34,415 nucleotides of DNA from the IMG/VR virus record IMGVR_UViG_2740892426_000006. One strand, given 5' to 3'. Position 1 is the first letter of the stretch; the number at the start of each line of letters is the position of its first letter. This DNA comes from a virus. Its lineage: Duplodnaviria > Heunggongvirae > Uroviricota > Caudoviricetes. The position numbers and the translations under genes were made by a program. The notes under the pieces are model-generated. The model worked only from the letters and a program-made list of their open reading frames with translations, was not told the DNA's origin and made no database searches. Shown here piece after piece: positions 4,991 to 14,046 of this stretch.

Positions 4991-5013
4991 AGCGTCCTGT
5001 AGGGCGCTTTTTT
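4991..5013 (+). terminator. rho-independent terminator after the 4436-4951 ORF
   Basis: Hairpin agcgtcc-tgta-gggcgct followed by a run of six T. Confidence 0.5.
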
Positions 5014-5096
5014 GTTGCTAACGAATCATCCTGGACTTCATATGCCCCAGGCGGCTACTTCGTGGGCGTCCTGCCTGTTCGTTATCTTTGATATAA

Positions 5097-5125
5097 AATC
5101 TAACTTAACTTAGTTATTATGGCAA
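5097..5125 (-). promoter_or_regulatory. candidate leftward promoter (pL-like) with embedded operator-like palindrome
   Basis: On the minus strand: TTGCCA, 17-nt spacer, TAGATT. The spacer contains CTAACTTAACTTAG, which resembles the palindromes in the cI-cro intergenic region. Confidence 0.3.
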
Positions 5126-5178
5126 GAGAAAACACCAAACTTTTCTTAGTTCGGTGCCTTAGTTAGAGAAGAGAGGTC

Positions 5179-5805
5179 TTAGAGTTCGTATTGAACTCCT
5201 TTGACTACACCAATGATAAGGCAATTACCATTGATAGGGATGTTGGGATACCGAGGATTTAATGGCACTAAAAACTTTTGAGGGCCATCGATGACTAATT
5301 TTTTTACTGTAGCTTCGTTTGTTCCATCAAGTCGAGCGATGACTATTTTTCCATGACGAGGTTCTGCATCTGGATCTACAATCACTGTTGCGCCTTCTGG
5401 TATTGTTGGGAGGCCATTAGGGTTAGTCATGGAGTCACCTTTAACCTCTAATGCAAATGAGTTATCACCAATCTTTAATGATGTATCTACCCACTTGTCC
5501 ACTTCACTAAACACTTCTGCTGCCCTGCACTCAGTAAACTGCCCAGCCTGAACCCACGATATTACAGGAACTCTGCGCATGTTTGTGACGAGTTTGCCTT
5601 CAAACTCAGCACCATAAAGAATGTAATCTATTGACGTATTGAAGAACTTCGCTAATTTCGAAAGTGCCTCCCCACCAGGGGTATTGATGTCTTTCTCCCA
5701 GTACCCCACAGCAACGTCGCTTACTCCACAAAATTTACCCAATTCTTTCTGGGACGTTCCGGTAACTCTTCTCAGAGCTTTTATACGCTGACCAACCGTT
5801 TCCAT
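5179..5805 (-). CDS. cI: CI-type prophage repressor (HTH plus LexA-like S24 autopeptidase domain)
   Basis: 208 aa; N-terminal HTH (SQKELGKFCGVSDVAVGYWE); C-terminal S24-like region with GDSM motif and a downstream K; divergent from cro. Confidence 0.85.
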   Translation of the reverse strand: METVGQRIKALRRVTGTSQKELGKFCGVSDVAVGYWEKDINTPGGEALSKLAKFFNTSIDYILYGAEFEGKLVTNMRRVPVISWVQAGQFTECRAAEVFSEVDKWVDTSLKIGDNSFALEVKGDSMTNPNGLPTIPEGATVIVDPDAEPRHGKIVIARLDGTNEATVKKLVIDGPQKFLVPLNPRYPNIPINGNCLIIGVVKGVQYEL

Positions 5806-5825
5806 AGGAGCACCATTTCTTGAAT

Positions 5826-5890
5826 TGCTAAGTAATCTTAGTTTTTATTGACCAAAGATAGATTTGTAATTAGCATCTAATAAAAATTAG
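5826..5890. promoter_or_regulatory. operator/promoter region between cI and cro (oR, pRM, pR)
   Basis: Three palindromes built from TTAG/CTAA half-sites: CTAAGtaatCTTAG (5828-5841), ATTAGcatCTAAT (5869-5881), CTAATaaaaATTAG (5877-5890). Confidence 0.45.
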
Positions 5891-5902
5891 CTTGGAGGGC
5901 GT

Positions 5903-6103
5903 ATGACAACTGACGATATCGAAAGCTACTTCGGCAGTATTGAGAAAGTTGCTGCTTTTTTCGGCATAACAACTGAAGCCGTTTATCAGTGGCGAAACCG
6001 TCCGGGCCAGTTAATTCCAAAAGGACGTGCAGCAGAAGCTGCATATAGAACTTGCGGACGGTTGCCATTTAAACCTGAGCTTTATGAAAAATCTAATGGA
6101 TAA
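5903..6103 (+). CDS. cro: Cro-like small HTH regulator
   Basis: 66 aa, GGAGGG Shine-Dalgarno, divergent from cI; the segment FGITTEAVYQWRN resembles a Cro-type HTH. Confidence 0.65.
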   Translation: MTTDDIESYFGSIEKVAAFFGITTEAVYQWRNRPGQLIPKGRAAEAAYRTCGRLPFKPELYEKSNG

Positions 6104-6692
6104 ATCGATTAACAGAAACCACAGAACGATGAGGCTAACCGTGGGTAAGCATCACTGGAAAGTAGAAAAACAGCCTGAGTGGTACGTGAAAGCTGTCAGA
6201 AAAACTATCGCAGCGTTGCCGGGTGGTTACGCTGAAGCAGCTGACTGGCTGGATGTAACAGAAAACGCATTATTTAACCGCCTTCGTGCCGATGGCGATC
6301 AGATTTTCCCGCTGGGATGGGCAATGATTTTGCAACGTGCTGGTGGAACTCACTTCATTGCTGACGCTGTGGCGCAGTCTGCAAATGGCGTCTTTGTGTC
6401 TCTTCCTGACGTCGAGGATGTGGACAACGCCGATATTAACCAGCGCCTGCTGGAAGTCATTGAACAGATTGGCAGTTATTCCAGACAGATTCGTTCGGCA
6501 ATCGAAGACGGTGTGGTGGAACCGCATGAGAAGACAGCAATTAACGACGAGCTGTATCTCTCAATTTCGAAGCTGCAGGAGCATGCAGCACTGGTCTACA
6601 AAATCTTTTGCATTTCAGAAAGTAATGACGCCCGCGAGTGTGCAGCTCCGGGCGCCGTGGCGTGTCGTGACTGTGGAGAAACTAACGCATGA
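6084..6692 (+). CDS. CII-like phage regulatory protein (start uncertain)
   Basis: ORF immediately after and overlapping the cro 3' end. Candidate starts at 6084, 6096, 6129 or GTG 6141. The position is that of lambdoid cII; family assignment is from memory only. Confidence 0.45.
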
Positions 6693-7027
6693 ACAGTTTA
6701 ACAACACACTACCGTCGCTCGCAACTGATTGCGCTTCCTGTACCGGGTGGAAAAGCGAAGGTGGAGTATTGCTATGCAGTAAATGTACCAGGTGGCAGGG
6801 TAATTGTAACCCACAGCTTTGCAGAGTGGGCTGTGGGTGATTTTAACCGGCAAAAGGAGACAGTCCTTTGCGACAAGTTAACCGCTGGTTCAAAGATCAC
6901 TACGGAGTACCCGTCAGAGTCATTCGTTGGGAGCCGGAAACACAACGGGTTATCTACCTCCGCGAAGGCTATGAGCATGAATGCTTCAGTCCGCTCGAAC
7001 AGTTTCGTCGTAAATTCAGGGAAATAG
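6689..7027 (+). CDS. hypothetical protein, 112 aa
   Basis: ATGA start/stop overlap with the preceding gene; ends 10 nt before the O-like start. Overlapping ORFs exist in two other frames, so this call is weak. Confidence 0.3.
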
Positions 7028-7036
7028 AGGTCGGTC

Positions 7037-7978
7037 ATGAGCACTAAATTAACCGGCTATGTATGGGATGGTTGCGCAGCGTCAGGCATGAAATTATCCA
7101 GCGTGGCAATTATGGCACGCCTGGCTGATTTCAGTAATGACGAAGGTGTGTGCTGGCCATCAATTGAAACCATTGCCCGCCAGATTGGCGCGGGGATGAG
7201 TACCGTCAGAACGGCTATCGCACGGCTGGAAGCAGAAGGCTGGTTAACGCGTAAGGCGCGTCGCCAGGGTAACCGCAATGCGTCGAATGTTTATCAGCTT
7301 AACGTTGCGAAGCTTCAGGCTGCGGCTTTTTCTCAACTGTCAGATTCTGACCCGTCAAAATCTGACGCATCAAAATCTGACCCGTCAAAATTTGATGCGT
7401 CGAAATCTGGCAAAAAAGCGGGTTTTCACCCGTCAGAATCTGGCGGGGATCCGTCAGTAAAATCAAAACATGATCCGTCAGATAAAAAAACTTCTCGTCC
7501 GGACGCTTCGCAACCGGACACGCAGAAGGCTGAACAGGATTTTTTAACTCGCCATCCTGATGCGGTTGTATTCAGCCCTAAAAAGCGCCAGTGGGGGACG
7601 CAGGATGATTTGACCTGCGCACAGTGGCTCTGGAAAAAAATCATCGCCCTGTACGAGCATGCCGCCGAATGTGACGGCGAGGTGGTTCGTCCCAAAGAAC
7701 CGAACTGGACAGCCTGGGCAAACGAAATTCGCCTGATGTGTGTGCAGGATGGTCGTACTCATAAACAAATCTGCGAGATGTACAGCCGCGTCAGTCGCGA
7801 TCCGTTCTGGTGCCGTAACGTGCTCAGCCCGTCGAAGCTGCGGGAAAAATGGGATGAGCTTTCCCTGCGCTTATCGCCGTCCGTCAGCACGTACACCGAA
7901 AAACGCGAGGACCCGTACTTCAAAGCCAGTTACGACAACGTGGACTACAGCCAGATCCCGGCAGGATTCAGGGGGTGA
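7037..7978 (+). CDS. replication initiation protein (O-like), N-terminal HTH, internal repeat linker
   Basis: GAGGT Shine-Dalgarno; N-terminal segment CWPSIETIARQIGAGMSTVRTAIARLEAEGWL is HTH-like; a 5-aa repeat linker (SDPSK/SDASK) is encoded by the DNA iterons. Confidence 0.7.
   Translation: MSTKLTGYVWDGCAASGMKLSSVAIMARLADFSNDEGVCWPSIETIARQIGAGMSTVRTAIARLEAEGWLTRKARRQGNRNASNVYQLNVAKLQAAAFSQLSDSDPSKSDASKSDPSKFDASKSGKKAGFHPSESGGDPSVKSKHDPSDKKTSRPDASQPDTQKAEQDFLTRHPDAVVFSPKKRQWGTQDDLTCAQWLWKKIIALYEHAAECDGEVVRPKEPNWTAWANEIRLMCVQDGRTHKQICEMYSRVSRDPFWCRNVLSPSKLREKWDELSLRLSPSVSTYTEKREDPYFKASYDNVDYSQIPAGFRG
7346..7420. repeat. iteron array (five tandem 15-bp units) inside the O-like gene; candidate origin of replication
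   Basis: tctgacccgtcaaaa / tctgacgcatcaaaa / tctgacccgtcaaaa / tttgatgcgtcgaaa / tctggcaaaaaagcg; further ccgtcaga copies and an A-rich tract (gataaaaaaa) extend to about 7490. Confidence 0.5.
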
Positions 7979-7980
7979 GC

Positions 7981-8469
7981 ATGAGTCTTTTGAATGACGT
8001 TCAGAAATTCATTGAAGCCCATCCGGGCTGTACTTCCGGAGACATTGCGGATGCTTTTGCAGGTTACTCACGGCAGCGCGTTCTGCAGTCAGCAAGCAAG
8101 TTACGTCAGAGTGGGCGTGTGGCTCACCGTTGTGAAGGGGATACACGCAGACATTTCCCGCGCCTGACTGAGAGAGCGCAGGAGGCGGAACCGCAACCAG
8201 TTCGTGAAACCAGACCTGTGCGCAATTTCTATGTCGGCACTAACGACCCGCGGGAGATTTTGTGCCTGACCCGCCAGGCTGAAGAACTGGAGTCCAGGGG
8301 CTTATACCGTCGTGCTGCAACGGTGTGGATGGCGGCATTCCGTGAAAGCCACTCCCAGCCAGAACGAAACAATTTTCTGGCGCGTCGTGAGCAGTGTTTA
8401 CGGAAAAGCAGCAAGCGCGCTGTATCGGGTGATGAGTGGTATCTGTCAGGGAATTACGTGGGGGCGTAA
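7981..8469 (+). CDS. winged-helix protein with PerC/ANR-like C-terminal motif
   Basis: ATG at 7981 after AGGGGG. The C-terminal segment LESRGLYRRAATVWMAAF resembles my recollection of the PerC-family signature; not aligned. Confidence 0.4.
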   Translation: MSLLNDVQKFIEAHPGCTSGDIADAFAGYSRQRVLQSASKLRQSGRVAHRCEGDTRRHFPRLTERAQEAEPQPVRETRPVRNFYVGTNDPREILCLTRQAEELESRGLYRRAATVWMAAFRESHSQPERNNFLARREQCLRKSSKRAVSGDEWYLSGNYVGA

Positions 8470-8795
8470 TGACGACGTTAACTCAATGCCAGCAGCAGGT
8501 GCTGGATATGCTGATTTCTTATCAGAAAGAGCGTGGCTTTCCGCCAACCAATCAGGAGGTGGCAACCATGCTGGGATACCGTTCAGTGAATGCAGCGGTG
8601 GAGCATCTTCGCGCACTGGAGAAAAAAGGCGTCATCACGATAAAGCGTGGCGTGGCCCGGGGGATAACGCTTCATACCGCGGTGAAGGACGACGACAGCG
8701 AGGCGGTCGGGATTATCCGCGCACTGCTTGCCGGTGAGGAAAACGCAAGGCTGCGTGCAACCCACTGGTTACATGAGAGGGGCCTGAAAGTATGA
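8469..8795 (+). CDS. LexA N-terminal DNA-binding-domain-like protein without a peptidase domain
   Basis: MTTLTQCQQQVLDMLISYQKERGFPPTNQEVATMLGYRSVNAAVEHLRALEKKGVI parallels the E. coli LexA N-terminus; only 108 aa, so no S24 domain. TAATG coupling with the upstream gene. Confidence 0.6.
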   Translation: MTTLTQCQQQVLDMLISYQKERGFPPTNQEVATMLGYRSVNAAVEHLRALEKKGVITIKRGVARGITLHTAVKDDDSEAVGIIRALLAGEENARLRATHWLHERGLKV

Positions 8796-9181
8796 AGCTG
8801 ATCCTGCCTTTTCCGCCCAGCGTGAACACGTACTGGCGACACCCCAACAAAGGGGCGTTTGCAGGTAAGAGCCTGATAAGCGCGGCGGGGCGCAAATTCC
8901 AGAGCGCGGCGTGTGCAGCAATAGTTGAGCAGTTACGTCGTCTGCCAAAACCAACGTCGGCACCTGCTTCAGTGGAGATCGTGTTGTTTCCTCCGGATAA
9001 CCGGATCCGCGATCTGGACAACTATAACAAGGCGCTGTTTGACGCCCTGACCCACGCGGGTGTGTGGGAAGACGACAGCCAGGTGAAAAGAATGCTGGTG
9101 GAGTGGGGACCGGTTATCCCGGAAGGGAAGGTCGAGATCACTATCAGTAAGTACGAGAAAACGGCGGGTGCAGCCGCCTGA
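8792..9181 (+). CDS. rusA: RusA-type Holliday junction resolvase
   Basis: 129 aa; N-terminus MKLILPFPPSVNTYWR and the DLDNYNKALFDAL segment match RusA from memory; ATGA coupling. Confidence 0.85.
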   Translation: MKLILPFPPSVNTYWRHPNKGAFAGKSLISAAGRKFQSAACAAIVEQLRRLPKPTSAPASVEIVLFPPDNRIRDLDNYNKALFDALTHAGVWEDDSQVKRMLVEWGPVIPEGKVEITISKYEKTAGAAA

Positions 9182-9200
9182 TCAAGAGGAGAAACGAAGT

Positions 9201-10010
9201 ATGAATAATCTGATGGTCATTGATGGTATTGAAGTTCGTCGTGATGCTTATGGGCGTTACAGCCTGAACGATCTGCATCGCGCAGCAGTAGCATCTGGTG
9301 CAAATGCCAGAACCAAGGAGCCGGGAAAGTTTCTTTCCAGCCAACAAACTGTTGAGCTTGTTCATGAATTGACCAACACCCAGAATTTGGGTGTTGACCC
9401 GGTGAGTGTGATTCATGGGGGAAATGAACGGGGAACTTATGTCTGCAAGGAACTGGTGTATGCCTATGCAATGTGGATCAGCCCGTCATTCCATCTGAAG
9501 GTGATCCGCACTTTCGACATGGTAACCAGCGCACCGGAAAAATTATCCGGGCAGGCTGCTGACAAGATGCAGGCTGGCGTGATTCTGCTGGACTTTATGC
9601 GCCGGGAGTTAAATCTGTCTAACTCATCAGTGCTTGGTGCCTGTCAGAAACTTCAGGAGGCTGTTGGCTTACCGAATCTGGCACCGCGCTATGCCATTGA
9701 TGCTCCTGCTGATGCACACGATGGCTCAAGTCGCCCGACACTGTCACTGAGTGCACTGCTGAAACAGTATGGTATACGCCTGACGGCTAATCAGGCATAT
9801 CACCAGATGGTGAAACTGGGGATCGTCGAGCAGCGCGAACGATACAGCCGTACCGCGATTAACAACATCAAAAAATTCTGGTCGCTGACAGCGAAAGGTT
9901 GCATGTTCGGCAAGAACATCACCAGTCCCGCAAATCCGCGCGAGACGCAGCCGCATTTCTTCGAATCCCGATTCCCTGAGCTGTTAAAGCTGCTCGATAC
10001 CGTTCATTGA
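9201..10010 (+). CDS. KilA-N domain protein (antirepressor-like)
   Basis: ATG at 9201 after AAGAGGAG; the N-terminal 100 aa look KilA-N-like. Confidence 0.6.
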   Translation: MNNLMVIDGIEVRRDAYGRYSLNDLHRAAVASGANARTKEPGKFLSSQQTVELVHELTNTQNLGVDPVSVIHGGNERGTYVCKELVYAYAMWISPSFHLKVIRTFDMVTSAPEKLSGQAADKMQAGVILLDFMRRELNLSNSSVLGACQKLQEAVGLPNLAPRYAIDAPADAHDGSSRPTLSLSALLKQYGIRLTANQAYHQMVKLGIVEQRERYSRTAINNIKKFWSLTAKGCMFGKNITSPANPRETQPHFFESRFPELLKLLDTVH

Positions 10011-10011
10011 G

Positions 10012-11007
10012 GTGACCGTGAGAGCACTACTGACCCCTGAAATTGCCCCGCGTATGGGGATCGTATTGTTCAGGCCAGGTTCAGAGCTGATGCCCCTGTT
10101 TATGCAGGGGCGTGTCCTGCTGGAGCCTGAGCCGGAGCGTTATTCATCTTTCGCCAGTGGTGCCGTTCCGGCGGCATCACAACCGCTGGCGGATGATCCT
10201 GCCGTTCGGGCCGTGTTCCGCAATGAGGCAGTGATCCGTCGTGCTGGTGGCGTGGAATGTCTTGAAAGCTGGTTACTTCGTGAAAAAGGCTGCCAGTGGC
10301 CTCATTCCGACTGGCACAGCGAGAACATGACCACAATGCGACACGCTCCGGGTGCAATCCGTCTGTGCTGGCACTGCGATAACCAGCTGCGCGATCAGTT
10401 CACGGAACGGCTGGAATCAATGGCAACGGATAACTGTGCCCGCTGGGTGTTGTCTGTTGTGCGTCGGGATCTCGGTTTTGATGACAGTCACGTTGTGACA
10501 ATGCCGGAACTGTGCTGGTGGCTGATTCGTAATGATCTGGCGGATGCCTTACCGGAAAGTGCAGCCCGTAAGGCACTGAGATTACCGAAGCCTGTTGTGC
10601 CGTCTGTTACCCGGGAAAGTGACCTTGTGCCTTCGGTTCCTGCCACCAGCATCATCCAGGATAAGGCGAAAAAGGTGCTGGCGCTGAAAGTGGATCCGGA
10701 GTCGCCGGAGTCTTTTATGTTACGCCCAAAACGTCGCCGCTGGGTTAATGAAAAGTACACGCGCTGGGTTAAGACACAGCCGTGTGCATGTTGTGGAAAG
10801 CCTGCTGATGATCCCCACCACCTGATAGGCCATGGTCAGGGTGGAATGGGTACAAAAGCGCATGACCTCTTTGTGTTGCCTTTGTGCAGAAAGCATCACG
10901 ACGAGCTGCATGCGGATACCGTGGCATTTGAAGAGATGTATGGCTCCCAGCTGGAGCTGATATTTCGTTTTATCGATCATGCGCTGGCAATAGGCGTACT
11001 GGCGTAA
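10012..11007 (+). CDS. nin-region protein with C-terminal HNH-like Cys/His motif (DUF968/YdfU-like)
   Basis: 331 aa; C-terminal CACCGKPADDPHHLIGHGQ...CRKHHDELH; sits immediately upstream of Q, as ydfU does in the Qin prophage. Confidence 0.55.
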   Translation: MTVRALLTPEIAPRMGIVLFRPGSELMPLFMQGRVLLEPEPERYSSFASGAVPAASQPLADDPAVRAVFRNEAVIRRAGGVECLESWLLREKGCQWPHSDWHSENMTTMRHAPGAIRLCWHCDNQLRDQFTERLESMATDNCARWVLSVVRRDLGFDDSHVVTMPELCWWLIRNDLADALPESAARKALRLPKPVVPSVTRESDLVPSVPATSIIQDKAKKVLALKVDPESPESFMLRPKRRRWVNEKYTRWVKTQPCACCGKPADDPHHLIGHGQGGMGTKAHDLFVLPLCRKHHDELHADTVAFEEMYGSQLELIFRFIDHALAIGVLA

Positions 11008-11020
11008 GTGGAGAACGAGC

Positions 11021-11773
11021 ATGAACCTTGAAGCCTTACCAAAATATTACTCCCCAAAATCTCCAAAATTGAGCGATGACGCACCGGCGACAGGCTCAGG
11101 TGGTTTAACGATTACGGATGTGATGGCTGCGCAGGGGATGGTGCAGTCGAAAGCACCGCTTGGGTTTGCCTTATTCCTGGCAAAAGTTGGTGTTCAGGAT
11201 CCTCAGTTTGCGATTGAAGGTCTGCTCAATTACGCGATGGCAATGGATAACCCGACATTGAACAAATTGAGTGAAGAAACCCGGTTACAGATCATCCCTT
11301 ACCTTGTGAGTTTTGCCTTTGCTGATTATTCCAGGTCTGCGGCAAGTAAGGCTCGCTGTGAGCATTGTGCTGGTACTGGATTTCATAGTGTATTGCGCGA
11401 AGTGGTGAAACACTCCAGAAGCGGGGAATCTGTTATCAAGGAAGAGTGGGTGAAGGAATTATGTCAGCATTGCCATGGTAAGGGAGAAGTCAGCACGGCT
11501 TGCAGAGGGTGTAAGGGTAAAGGCATTGTCCTGGATGAAAAAAGAACCCGGCTTCATGGCGCGCCTGTTTATAAGATTTGTGGGCGTTGCAATGGAAACC
11601 GGTTTAGTCGTTTACCGACCACACTGGCACGACGTCATGTCCAGAAGCTGGTACCAGACCTGACTGATTATCAGTGGTACAAAGGATATGCAGACGTCAT
11701 TGATAAACTGGTAACAAAGTGCTGGCAGGAAGAAGCATTCGCTGAAGCACAATTGAGAAAGGTGACGAGATAA
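11021..11773 (+). CDS. Q: late-gene antiterminator Q (QuuQ-type, 250 aa)
   Basis: 250 aa with Cys/His clusters (CEHCAGTG, CQHCHGKG, CRGCKGKG, CGRCNG); followed by a promoter/terminator module. Confidence 0.7.
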   Translation: MNLEALPKYYSPKSPKLSDDAPATGSGGLTITDVMAAQGMVQSKAPLGFALFLAKVGVQDPQFAIEGLLNYAMAMDNPTLNKLSEETRLQIIPYLVSFAFADYSRSAASKARCEHCAGTGFHSVLREVVKHSRSGESVIKEEWVKELCQHCHGKGEVSTACRGCKGKGIVLDEKRTRLHGAPVYKICGRCNGNRFSRLPTTLARRHVQKLVPDLTDYQWYKGYADVIDKLVTKCWQEEAFAEAQLRKVTR

Positions 11774-11802
11774 GTGATTTTCACCGAAGATGGCGACATG
11801 AT

Positions 11803-11838
11803 GCTTGCATTTCTCAAAAAATATGGATAAGATTTTCC
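11803..11838 (+). promoter_or_regulatory. candidate late promoter pR' (with qut)
   Basis: TTGCAT, 17-nt spacer, TAAGAT, directly downstream of Q; a short leader runs to the terminator at 11879-11910. Confidence 0.3.
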
Positions 11839-11878
11839 CAACGATGGGATTTGTATGTCTACCGTTGATGAGTCCAAG

Positions 11879-11910
11879 AACCCGCCGCCGAGCGGGTTAA
11901 ATTATTTTTT
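11879..11910 (+). terminator. rho-independent terminator (tR'-like)
   Basis: Stem aacccgc/gcgggtt with loop cgccga, then aaattatttttt. Confidence 0.55.
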
Positions 11911-11927
11911 CTTACACGGGGATATGG

Positions 11928-12458
11928 ATGTTATACCGAGATCTTTTGCCTATTTTCTCAGAAAGACCCATATTTAAAGCTCCTGAGGCTGAAAGAATAC
12001 TTCGTGAGCAATATTCTATCGCCGCCCCCACTCCTGTAATTCAGGAGATTTATTATGGATTGGCAGGTTATGACAGATTTCAGGAGCTTTATGGGGATCT
12101 TAATATTGACCAAATCGAATGGAAATTGATTGAACTTCCCACTAAAAATTTTTTAACTATCGGGGATAATGCTACTTACCCTGATTTTTTGCATGAGGTC
12201 GTTGAAGATTTCACAACCCGTAAAGGCGATGTATTTATGGATGATGAAATAAAAGCGCATTGGTGTAATTTTGGCACATGGTGTGAACCTCCATTTTTTA
12301 TAGATCGAGCTTTGCTGAAAAGTAATACAACAGGGCTTCATTTAATGGAAGGGCATACAAGAGTTGGAACCCTGTTAGGGGCAGTTAAGTATAACTTCGT
12401 TAAGCTTGCTAATACTCATAAAATTTATTATGCGCAAGCAAAAGAATGTATTAAATAA
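11928..12458 (+). CDS. AT-rich moron protein, 176 aa, unknown function
   Basis: Clean ORF immediately after tR'; markedly lower GC than its flanks; followed by a terminator. Confidence 0.5.
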   Translation: MLYRDLLPIFSERPIFKAPEAERILREQYSIAAPTPVIQEIYYGLAGYDRFQELYGDLNIDQIEWKLIELPTKNFLTIGDNATYPDFLHEVVEDFTTRKGDVFMDDEIKAHWCNFGTWCEPPFFIDRALLKSNTTGLHLMEGHTRVGTLLGAVKYNFVKLANTHKIYYAQAKECIK

Positions 12459-12495
12459 GTTGAGTGAAATTACTGTTTTTTTTTTAACAATACTT

Positions 12496-12517
12496 ACCGC
12501 GTTCTCGCGGTTTTTTT
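12496..12517 (+). terminator. rho-independent terminator after the moron
   Basis: accgcg-ttct-cgcggt followed by a run of seven T. Confidence 0.5.
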
Positions 12518-12984: not shown

Positions 12985-14046
12985 ATGAAAAACACTGTAA
13001 AAATAAACAGTATTGATTTAATCAACGCTGATTGCCTGCATTTTATTCAGTCCCTGCCTGATGATTCCATTGACCTGATTGTTACCGATCCGCCTTACTT
13101 CAAGGTGAAACCCAACGGTTGGGACAATCAGTGGAAAGGGGACGAAGATTACCTTAAGTGGCTGGACCACTGTCTGGCCCAGTTCTGGCGGGTGTTGAAA
13201 CCTGCCGGAAGCCTTTACCTGTTCTGTGGGCATCGCCTGGCATCTGATATTGAGATCATGATGCGTGAACGTTTCAACGTGCTTAACCATATCATCTGGG
13301 CGAAGCCGTCCGGACGTTGGAATGGGTGTAATAAAGAAAGTCTGCGCGCATATTTTCCTGCCACAGAGCGCGTTCTGTTTGCTGAACATTACCGGGGGCC
13401 ATATCGCGGCAAAAGTGACGGCTATGTGGCAAAAGAAAGGGAACTCAAACAGCACATAATGGCACCGCTGATATCGTATTTCAGGGATGCTCGTGCCGAA
13501 CTGGGTATAACGGCAAAACAAATTGCCGAAGCCACAGGTAAGAAAAATATGGTTTCCCACTGGTTTGGTGCCAGTCAGTGGCAGTTGCCGAATGAGGCTG
13601 ACTACCGGAAGTTACAGGCACTGTTTTCCCGTATAGCGGCAGAGAAGTTTCAGGAACAACAACTGGAACAACCACACCACCAGTTGGTGGCATCTTATGA
13701 TTCACTGAATCGCAAATATTCTGAATTGCTGGATGAGTTTAAATCTCTCCGGCGCTATTTCTCCGTATCAGTCTCCGTGCCTTATACCGATGTCTGGATG
13801 CATAAACCCGTTCAGTTCTACCCGGGTAAACATCCGTGTGAGAAACCGGCGGATATGCTCAGGCAAATAATCAATGCCAGTAGTCGACCCGGCGATCTGG
13901 TTGCTGATTTCTTTATGGGATCCGGTTCCACAATAAAAGCAGCAATGGCGCTGGGGCGTCGGGCGTTAGGTGTTGAGCTTGAGACAGAGCGGTTTAATCA
14001 GACCATCCAGGAAATCAGTATGTTATCAGCAAATACAATTTTGTGA
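12985..14046 (+). CDS. orphan DNA methyltransferase (N6-adenine/N4-cytosine class; motif IV precedes motif I)
   Basis: DLIVTDPPY (motif IV) near the N-terminus and FFMGSGST (AdoMet-binding motif I) near the C-terminus; no restriction endonuclease gene adjacent. Confidence 0.8.
   Translation: MKNTVKINSIDLINADCLHFIQSLPDDSIDLIVTDPPYFKVKPNGWDNQWKGDEDYLKWLDHCLAQFWRVLKPAGSLYLFCGHRLASDIEIMMRERFNVLNHIIWAKPSGRWNGCNKESLRAYFPATERVLFAEHYRGPYRGKSDGYVAKERELKQHIMAPLISYFRDARAELGITAKQIAEATGKKNMVSHWFGASQWQLPNEADYRKLQALFSRIAAEKFQEQQLEQPHHQLVASYDSLNRKYSELLDEFKSLRRYFSVSVSVPYTDVWMHKPVQFYPGKHPCEKPADMLRQIINASSRPGDLVADFFMGSGSTIKAAMALGRRALGVELETERFNQTIQEISMLSANTIL

Follow-up and report, generated by a model that had tools for sequence, protein, structure and literature searches.

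The presence of a PerC-like motif in a small prophage gene directly downstream of a replication initiator raises the question of whether the gene product regulates virulence loci of the host, takes part in phage replication or acts in some other way. This question was addressed by computational analysis of a 34,415-nucleotide stretch of DNA (hereafter, the window), the whole of which is a lambdoid prophage with its nearest relatives among ECOR13 phages, e.g., PhiR29_1. The open reading frame list, Pfam and PHROG matches, nucleotide identity and codon-position bias all indicated a yfdN-type coding sequence of 162 amino acids plus a TAA stop on the + strand at 7981..8469, with the start ATG at 7981 and the stop at 8467-8469. 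An alternative GTG start at 7975 would give a product of 164 amino acids, but the ATG at 7981 is the likely start because diverged YfdN homologues all begin with MSL and the GTG was off-frame in several of the aligned loci. This ATG follows the initiator TGA after a gap of 2 nt, and the last codons of the initiator (GGATTCAGGGGGTGA), at the junction of the two genes (7962..7983, + strand), carry the yfdN Shine-Dalgarno. Differences between yfdN and its homologues numbered 64 at third codon positions as opposed to 25-35 at positions 1 and 2, an excess that confirms protein-coding selection on the reading frame. The open reading frame and its resemblance to PerC are genuine and not the product of chance.

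The gene is the orthologue of yfdN of E. coli K-12, which lies in the cryptic prophage CPS-53 (CPS-53/KpLE1), and is the type member of a two-domain PerC branch. At the DNA level, genes with 95-99% identity to it were present in 49 phage records, among them those of SfIV, mEp460, SKA5 and Stx2c-converting phages, and 2674 of 5426 complete E. coli genomes, that of K-12 included, carry yfdN. Named orthologues comprise K-12 yfdN, SfV orf40, SfIV gp42, mEp460 gp44 and ST64B sb43; the E. coli and Shigella orthologues have the same two domains and the same post-initiator position at 95-99% nucleotide identity, and ST64B sb43 shares 67% protein identity with YfdN of the window. The whole protein was matched by PHROG 1324 ("transcriptional activator") with an E-value of 1.2e-77, records of the PhiR29_1 type label the same gene YfdN, and orthologues already carry the RefSeq name "PerC family transcriptional regulator". 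Since the gene and the family label both stand in public annotation, both were already known. A literature search for experiments on the function of YfdN-type proteins found none; apart from one study discussed below, mentions of yfdN in the literature are screen hits without follow-up.

Membership in the PerC family, proposed earlier from the motif LESRGLYRRAATVWMAAF (residues 103-120; 8287..8340, + strand), was borne out by profile comparisons. Pfam PF06069 matched residues 98-151 with 39 bits (gathering score, 22.6; E 1e-09), and hhalign aligned the YfdN family with short PerC-family proteins over 57 columns at 99.4% probability (E 1.3e-21). The motif holds L103, R111 and A112, which are invariant in the alignment of two-domain proteins, where A100, G107, A113, R136 and C139 are near-invariant; the same columns are invariant in the short PerC proteins. 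The core of approximately 55 residues that YfdN has in common with PerC (EPEC pEAF) and PchA/B/C (EHEC prophages) reads A-E-x-L-E-x-x-G-L-[YWF]-R-R-A-A-x-x-W...R-R-x-x-C-L; the PerC/Pch-type and YfdN family profiles are 35% identical, and both types of gene reside on mobile elements. PerC/Pch-type proteins are single-domain, approximately 70-105 amino acids in length and furnished with an extra conserved C-terminal segment (PP...A...MGI) that is absent from YfdN, whereas YfdN has an added N-terminal winged helix and linker and terminates in WYLSGNYVG. More generally, short single-domain PerC-family proteins (60-105 amino acids) have the core alone in common with YfdN, and their different C-terminal segment fits the observation that YfdN matches only positions 5-58 of the 90 in the PF06069 profile. 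The canonical PerC/Pch type, which is single-domain and spans the full 90-position profile, does not accommodate the 162-residue YfdN. Many PerC-family genes with 33-45% identity were found by tblastn against plasmids, and the single locus that was opened was not the per operon.

As delimited by PF06069, hhalign, a domain model and fold matches, the PerC core (8248..8427, + strand) comprises three predicted helices (residues 90-105, 109-122 and 126-149) with a TPR/ANR-like arrangement. When modelled alone with a deeper alignment, it was predicted by AlphaFold2 to form a three-helix bundle with pLDDT values of 90-96, and the segment from residue 89 to 150 is basic, with a calculated pI of approximately 10. 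The best PDB matches of the core in Foldseek were TPR/MIT-type peptide-binding modules with E-values that were not significant; neither PDB nor BFVD gave a statistically significant Foldseek match to the core, and a sequence search of PDB with YfdN gave no match. The core model superposed on phage ANR regulators with rmsd values of 0.9-2.3 Å, target TM scores of 0.58-0.90 and Foldseek E-values of 0.1-0.3, the best such superposition having an rmsd of 0.9 Å and a target TM of 0.90, and Sel1/TPR proteins were also among the best viral matches. By comparison, the NCBIfam ANR model NF033650 matched residues 96-142 with 22.3 bits, below its cutoff of 32 (E 8.9e-05). The "ANR-like" part of the first-pass annotation therefore appears to hold at the level of fold only and fails at the family cutoff; "PerC/ANR-like" is apt for the modelled fold, and the family is PerC. 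Members of the ANR family (Aar, Rnr) appear to share the three-helix fold predicted for the YfdN core, with weak sequence similarity (the E-value of 8.9e-05 noted above). They differ from YfdN in being single-domain proteins of approximately 54-90 amino acids that act as AraC/XylS anti-activators, whereas YfdN has a winged helix and its gene is not linked to one of the AraC family.

The winged helix that had been proposed to precede the PerC motif was also recovered. Residues 1-60 (7981..8160, + strand) were modelled by AlphaFold2 with pLDDT values of approximately 85-92 as helices 3-13, 19-25 and 31-44 followed by a hairpin at 47-60, and superposed on winged-helix domains in Foldseek. When the whole protein was compared with PDB, matches were to the winged helix only and included MarR, ArsR, BlaI and DsrD, with rmsd values of approximately 2 Å over 58-68 residues, a probability of 1.0 and weak E-values of 0.003-0.2. 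Sub-threshold HMM matches of this domain were to phrog_1687 (MarR) and, in some family members, to Penicillinase_R, MarR_2 and HTH_24. The segment from residue 1 to 62 is basic, with a calculated pI of 9.8, and the recognition helix is poorly conserved in the alignment of the YfdN family; DNA binding by the modelled winged helix is assumed in what follows. Between the domains, residues 63-84 (8167..8232, + strand) form a Pro/Glu-rich linker that is predicted to be disordered (pLDDT < 50) and that varies in length and sequence across the family.

The combination of winged helix and PerC core was found by exhaustive profile search and alignment to be a distinct architecture of approximately 145-165 amino acids that can be traced down to approximately 21-30% identity. 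Conserved features of this family are the N-terminal MSL...FI..NPG.T, the PerC core and the C-terminal L.G.Y.G end, and PF06069 matched all of the two-domain relatives examined (31/31), including those with as little as 21% identity. A profile scan of genome contigs with the YfdN alignment identified 5 loci. One winged-helix and PerC protein (P0191, locus L022, 5001-5480) is encoded in a satellite/PICI-like element with an integrase, AlpA and no structural genes nearby; the two-domain architecture is therefore not confined to the slot that follows a replication gene. The C-terminus of a distant two-domain PerC protein encoded after RecT (P0239, locus L027, 5001-5498), ...SNVSLPVNGFFRN, is similar to the initiator tail motif described below, a similarity seen only once and perhaps coincidental.

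With the replication initiator (7037-7978) on one side and the Q antiterminator (11021-11773) on the other, yfdN occupies the nin-equivalent position assigned to it at first reading. Genes in the window are arranged in the order CII-like (6027-6692), a 112-aa open reading frame, initiator, yfdN, LexA-DBD protein, RusA, KilA-N, DUF968 and Q. The initiator (7037..7978, + strand; Pfam HTH_36, PHROG 391) consists of an HTH_36 N-terminus, a lambda-O-like C-terminal domain (131-277) and a conserved tail. On the other side of yfdN, the ATG of a gene for a 108-aa protein that contains the LexA DNA-binding domain only (8469..8795, + strand; Pfam LexA_DNA_bind, 69 bits) overlaps the yfdN stop (TAATG); this protein has no S24 peptidase part, and its gene stands just upstream of RusA in most of the related loci examined. 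In the majority of the early-operon loci examined, a LexA-DBD-like gene came next after yfdN or was separated from it by a methyltransferase gene, and the order in most loci was replication gene, yfdN-like gene, optional methyltransferase (Dam, MT-A70 or D12), LexA-DBD-like gene, RusA, KilA-N or ANT, DUF968 and Q. The same order recurs where the yfdN-like protein is only approximately 25-40% identical, and the start of its gene abuts or overlaps the stop of the upstream replication gene (ATGA), which suggests translational coupling of yfdN. A dam-type gene separates yfdN from the LexA-DBD-like gene in K-12, mEp460 and SfV and is present at that position in neither the window nor SfIV; a gene for a 353-aa N6/N4 DNA methyltransferase was noted downstream of Q in the window (12985-14046), where yfdN is not followed by the usual dam-type gene. 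The 250-aa Q-type antiterminator (PF03589, 11021-11773) contains a sub-threshold segment resembling a DnaJ-type CXXCXGXG zinc finger.

A simple consensus scan of the + strand revealed no promoter-like site between approximately 5876 and 9514 and no terminator-like site between approximately 5685 and 10436, and the GC content of yfdN (0.56, or 56%) was within the range of 0.50-0.58 seen in its neighbours. These findings indicate that yfdN is embedded in the early-right operon and does not resemble a self-contained moron. From 5000 to 12500, the number of terminator-like hairpins on both strands was 22, compared with 7.7 +/- 2.5 in shuffled sequences, and none of them flanks yfdN on the + strand. 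With respect to the features by which morons are recognized, yfdN lacks a promoter or terminator of its own (as judged by the consensus scan only) and a deviant composition, but it does vary in presence among syntenic phages, being present in SfIV, mEp460 and Stx2c phages and absent or deleted in mEp390, cdtI and the Klebsiella phage ST101-KPC2phi6.3. In lambdoid prophages of the SfV/SfIV/CPS-53 type, the delayed-early rightward operon includes yfdN as an optional accessory gene.

A role for YfdN in replication was examined because the window is P-less, the initiator is lambda-O-like and identical tails were found on initiators with only 30% identity. Residues 131-277 of the initiator were 35.6% identical to the C-terminal domain of lambda O (E 1e-18), and Pfam and NCBIfam revealed no P, DnaC or DnaB gene in the window. 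In the case of two initiators that were only 30% identical overall, the last 24 residues, just before yfdN, were identical; these residues are specified by the last 24 codons of the initiator gene (7904-7975), with REDPYFKASYDNVDYSQIPAGFRG as the tail peptide. The tail, with the consensus [FY][KR][AS]S[YFH]..[VT][DAN]Y....P.GFR[GSTQ], was shared by the protein sequences of all lambda-O-like or HTH_36 initiators examined that had no P gene downstream (those of the window and of loci L002, L010, L014-L019, L023, L025, L028 and L029), with codons that differ between loci, whereas downstream of the tail-less relatives of these initiators (lambda O and Edno5 gp55) comes a lambda-P-like gene. A tblastn search of the phage collection gave 57 records for the tail and 57 for YfdN, with a large overlap between the two sets. 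A further feature of the initiator gene, at 7339-7447, is a series of direct repeats, approximately six in number and recurring every 15 nt (TCAAAATCTGACSCR), each of which includes a short palindrome, GTCAnAnTCTGAC; in the protein, the repeats correspond to the repetitive DPSKSDASKS linker, and they are probably phage origin iterons located inside the initiator gene, as in lambda.

The tail and yfdN were separable in several phages. In mEp390, which has no yfdN, the tail is kept and the initiator is followed directly by the LexA-DBD-like gene; in cdtI (locus L028, 2581-2670), a 30-codon remnant of yfdN is left by an internal deletion that places codon 26 directly before the final few codons (MSLL...ADAF joined to YVGD and the stop); and in Klebsiella phage ST101-KPC2phi6.3, an unrelated 70-aa open reading frame occupies the yfdN slot next to a tail-bearing initiator. 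The tail is therefore conserved independently, and yfdN is dispensable. Besides the cdtI deletion, an IS-interrupted yfdN in Stx2a_WGPS2 (AP012537.1, about 9725-9970) represents a natural knock-out. Conversely, one YfdN relative with 40% identity has a lambda-P-like gene upstream, and distant two-domain members are located either beside AlpA, within a satellite-like element, or downstream of RecT. In-frame fusions of initiator tail and YfdN were sought and none was found, the long cluster members all being frameshift or out-of-frame read-throughs. The map slot of yfdN, directly after the initiator in the rightward early operon, is equivalent to that of lambda P, but the two are unrelated in sequence, one YfdN relative coexists with a P-like gene and yfdN can be dispensed with in related phages. 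Replacement of lambda P by yfdN was rejected as the main explanation on the basis of the P-like gene upstream of the relative and the yfdN-less phages with tail-bearing initiators. Likewise, comparison of YfdN with Pfam, NCBIfam and PHROGs gave no match to a helicase loader (lambda P PF06992 or DnaC-like). YfdN is neither a helicase loader nor an essential replication protein. The simplest reading is that the tail, and not YfdN, makes up for the missing P. On this view, the nin-like region opens with yfdN as an optional accessory. The tail may replace P-dependent helicase recruitment.

The first-pass verdict that yfdN is not a replication gene is thus probably correct, given that YfdN has no homology to P, DnaC or DnaB and that yfdN is missing from related phages whose initiator is of the same type. 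A subtler connection, in which either docking of the TPR-like core on the initiator tail or binding of the winged helix to the ori iterons would allow YfdN to modulate origin firing or helicase recruitment in the functional slot of lambda P, is quite unlikely in our estimation. It draws on the placement of yfdN directly downstream of the initiator, with its start abutting or overlapping the initiator stop even at 25-31% identity, on the lack of P, DnaC and DnaB from a window with a lambda-O-like initiator domain, on the retention of an identical or conserved tail beside yfdN by initiators with different bodies, on the largely shared distribution of tail and YfdN, and on the tendency of TPR/MIT-like folds to bind short peptide motifs. 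These points are countered by the tail-bearing initiators of mEp390, cdtI and ST101-KPC2phi6.3, none of which is accompanied by a functional yfdN, by the relative that comes after a lambda-P-like loader, by the distant members located next to AlpA or RecT and by the absence of loader homology from YfdN itself.

Improbable, too, is the interpretation put forward in the first-pass annotation, namely that yfdN is prophage-expressed host-regulatory cargo that cross-activates virulence loci (LEE/ler or similar) in the manner of PerC and PchABC, and the label of virulence cargo was not supported by the present results. The PerC motif lies in the common core, PchABC are prophage-borne activators of ler, yfdN is variably present among related phages and a UPEC promoter-trap fragment that extends across a yfdN-containing prophage region was induced by urine. 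Furthermore, Uhlich et al. (PMC5931665), in the parts of their report that concern yfdN, refer to it as "the K12 unique PerC homologue" and describe its deletion, as a potential confounder, from a ler-lacZ reporter strain, with no assay of YfdN itself in those parts. However, yfdN is carried by approximately half of complete E. coli genomes, including those of K-12 and of commensals without LEE, it lies in the early-right operon without a promoter- or terminator-like site of its own and is typical of adjoining genes in GC content. Early-right operons of lambdoid prophages are repressed in lysogens, and such repression would apply to that of yfdN. The C-terminal third of the PerC profile is missing, only positions 5-58 of 90 being matched, and some PerC homologues, i.e., PchD, PchE and those of PICIs, fail to activate LEE or repress it. 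According to Uhlich et al., PchA/B/C activate ler and PchD and PchE do so minimally or not at all (PMC5931665), while PICI-borne PerC homologues either have no effect on LEE1 or repress it (PMC11773190). Because family members may activate, do nothing or repress, membership in the PerC family does not predict activation of LEE or cross-regulation of virulence. Repression of LEE1 by a PICI PerC-family protein, for which ANR-like behaviour was proposed by the authors (PMC11773190), is in keeping with another possibility, namely that the YfdN core is an ANR-type anti-activator that inhibits a transcription factor (of the AraC/XylS type, or CII or Q), with the winged helix serving only as a dimerisation or targeting module. 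The sub-threshold ANR match at residues 96-142, the close superposition of the core on phage ANR regulators and the protein-protein interactions by which ANR proteins are reported to work (PMC4983702, PMC10148876) point in the same direction, but the ANR score fell short of its cutoff (22.3 against 32), PerC matched better and an AraC-family gene was linked to the yfdN-like gene in none of the loci examined, which leaves this possibility decidedly improbable. Least probable, to the point of being very doubtful, is an exclusion or counter-defence function unconnected with host-gene transcription and analogous to that of lambda ren. The ren gene of lambda sits just after the replication genes, a map position that yfdN shares, and yfdN is optional among related phages; on the other hand, a PADLOC scan returned no meaningful match (noise only) and the domain composition is that of a regulator.

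The role that we consider most likely for YfdN, with chances that we would put at about even, is that of a DNA-tethered modulator of H-NS-type silencing that is made after induction from an optional two-domain gene of the early operon. The early-operon position of yfdN and the lack of a promoter-like site of its own lead us to infer that expression is mainly post-induction, and the product would accordingly be made for the most part after prophage induction, alongside the replication proteins and ahead of Q-dependent late transcription. The winged helix would tether YfdN to DNA while the PerC/ANR-fold core, as a TPR-like protein-contact module, would act on H-NS-family silencing complexes in the way of Pch at LEE1 and of the H-NS-binding protein Aar, the predicted outcome being altered transcription of silenced phage or host DNA in lytic development. 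Pch is known to activate LEE1 only by relief of silencing by H-NS, StpA and Hha, with reduced H-NS binding (PMC4764244), and direct binding of H-NS has been described for the ANR protein Aar (PMC5570504), so Aar and Pch converge on the same host target. Against a simple form of this picture, Fukui et al. found that H-NS was not co-precipitable with PchA, and any link between YfdN and H-NS would follow by homology of the core of approximately 55 residues only. Moreover, a purely transcriptional role does not explain the tight and conserved adjacency of yfdN to P-less initiators. A more inclusive proposal would treat YfdN-type proteins as the phage-core, two-domain form of PerC/ANR, acting at induction as a DNA-tethered adaptor whose core docks on H-NS-family proteins or on the tail of P-less initiators and so couples the onset of replication to de-silencing, with PerC, Pch and ANR proteins as truncated, domesticated derivatives; this proposal is unlikely to hold.

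For the most part, these results correct an over-reading, in that the label of PerC family on a prophage gene does not make that gene a virulence regulator. At the same time, yfdN is a near-ubiquitous and uncharacterised prophage gene of E. coli. Experiments might prove worthwhile on two points only, namely its two-domain architecture and the conserved tail of P-less initiators. Knowledge of what YfdN does could shed light on the function of the PerC/ANR fold in an apparently native phage setting and on why Pch and Aar converge on H-NS. The conserved tail on P-less, lambda-O-like initiators, which bears on the loading of the host helicase by these very common prophages, is arguably the more testable lead.
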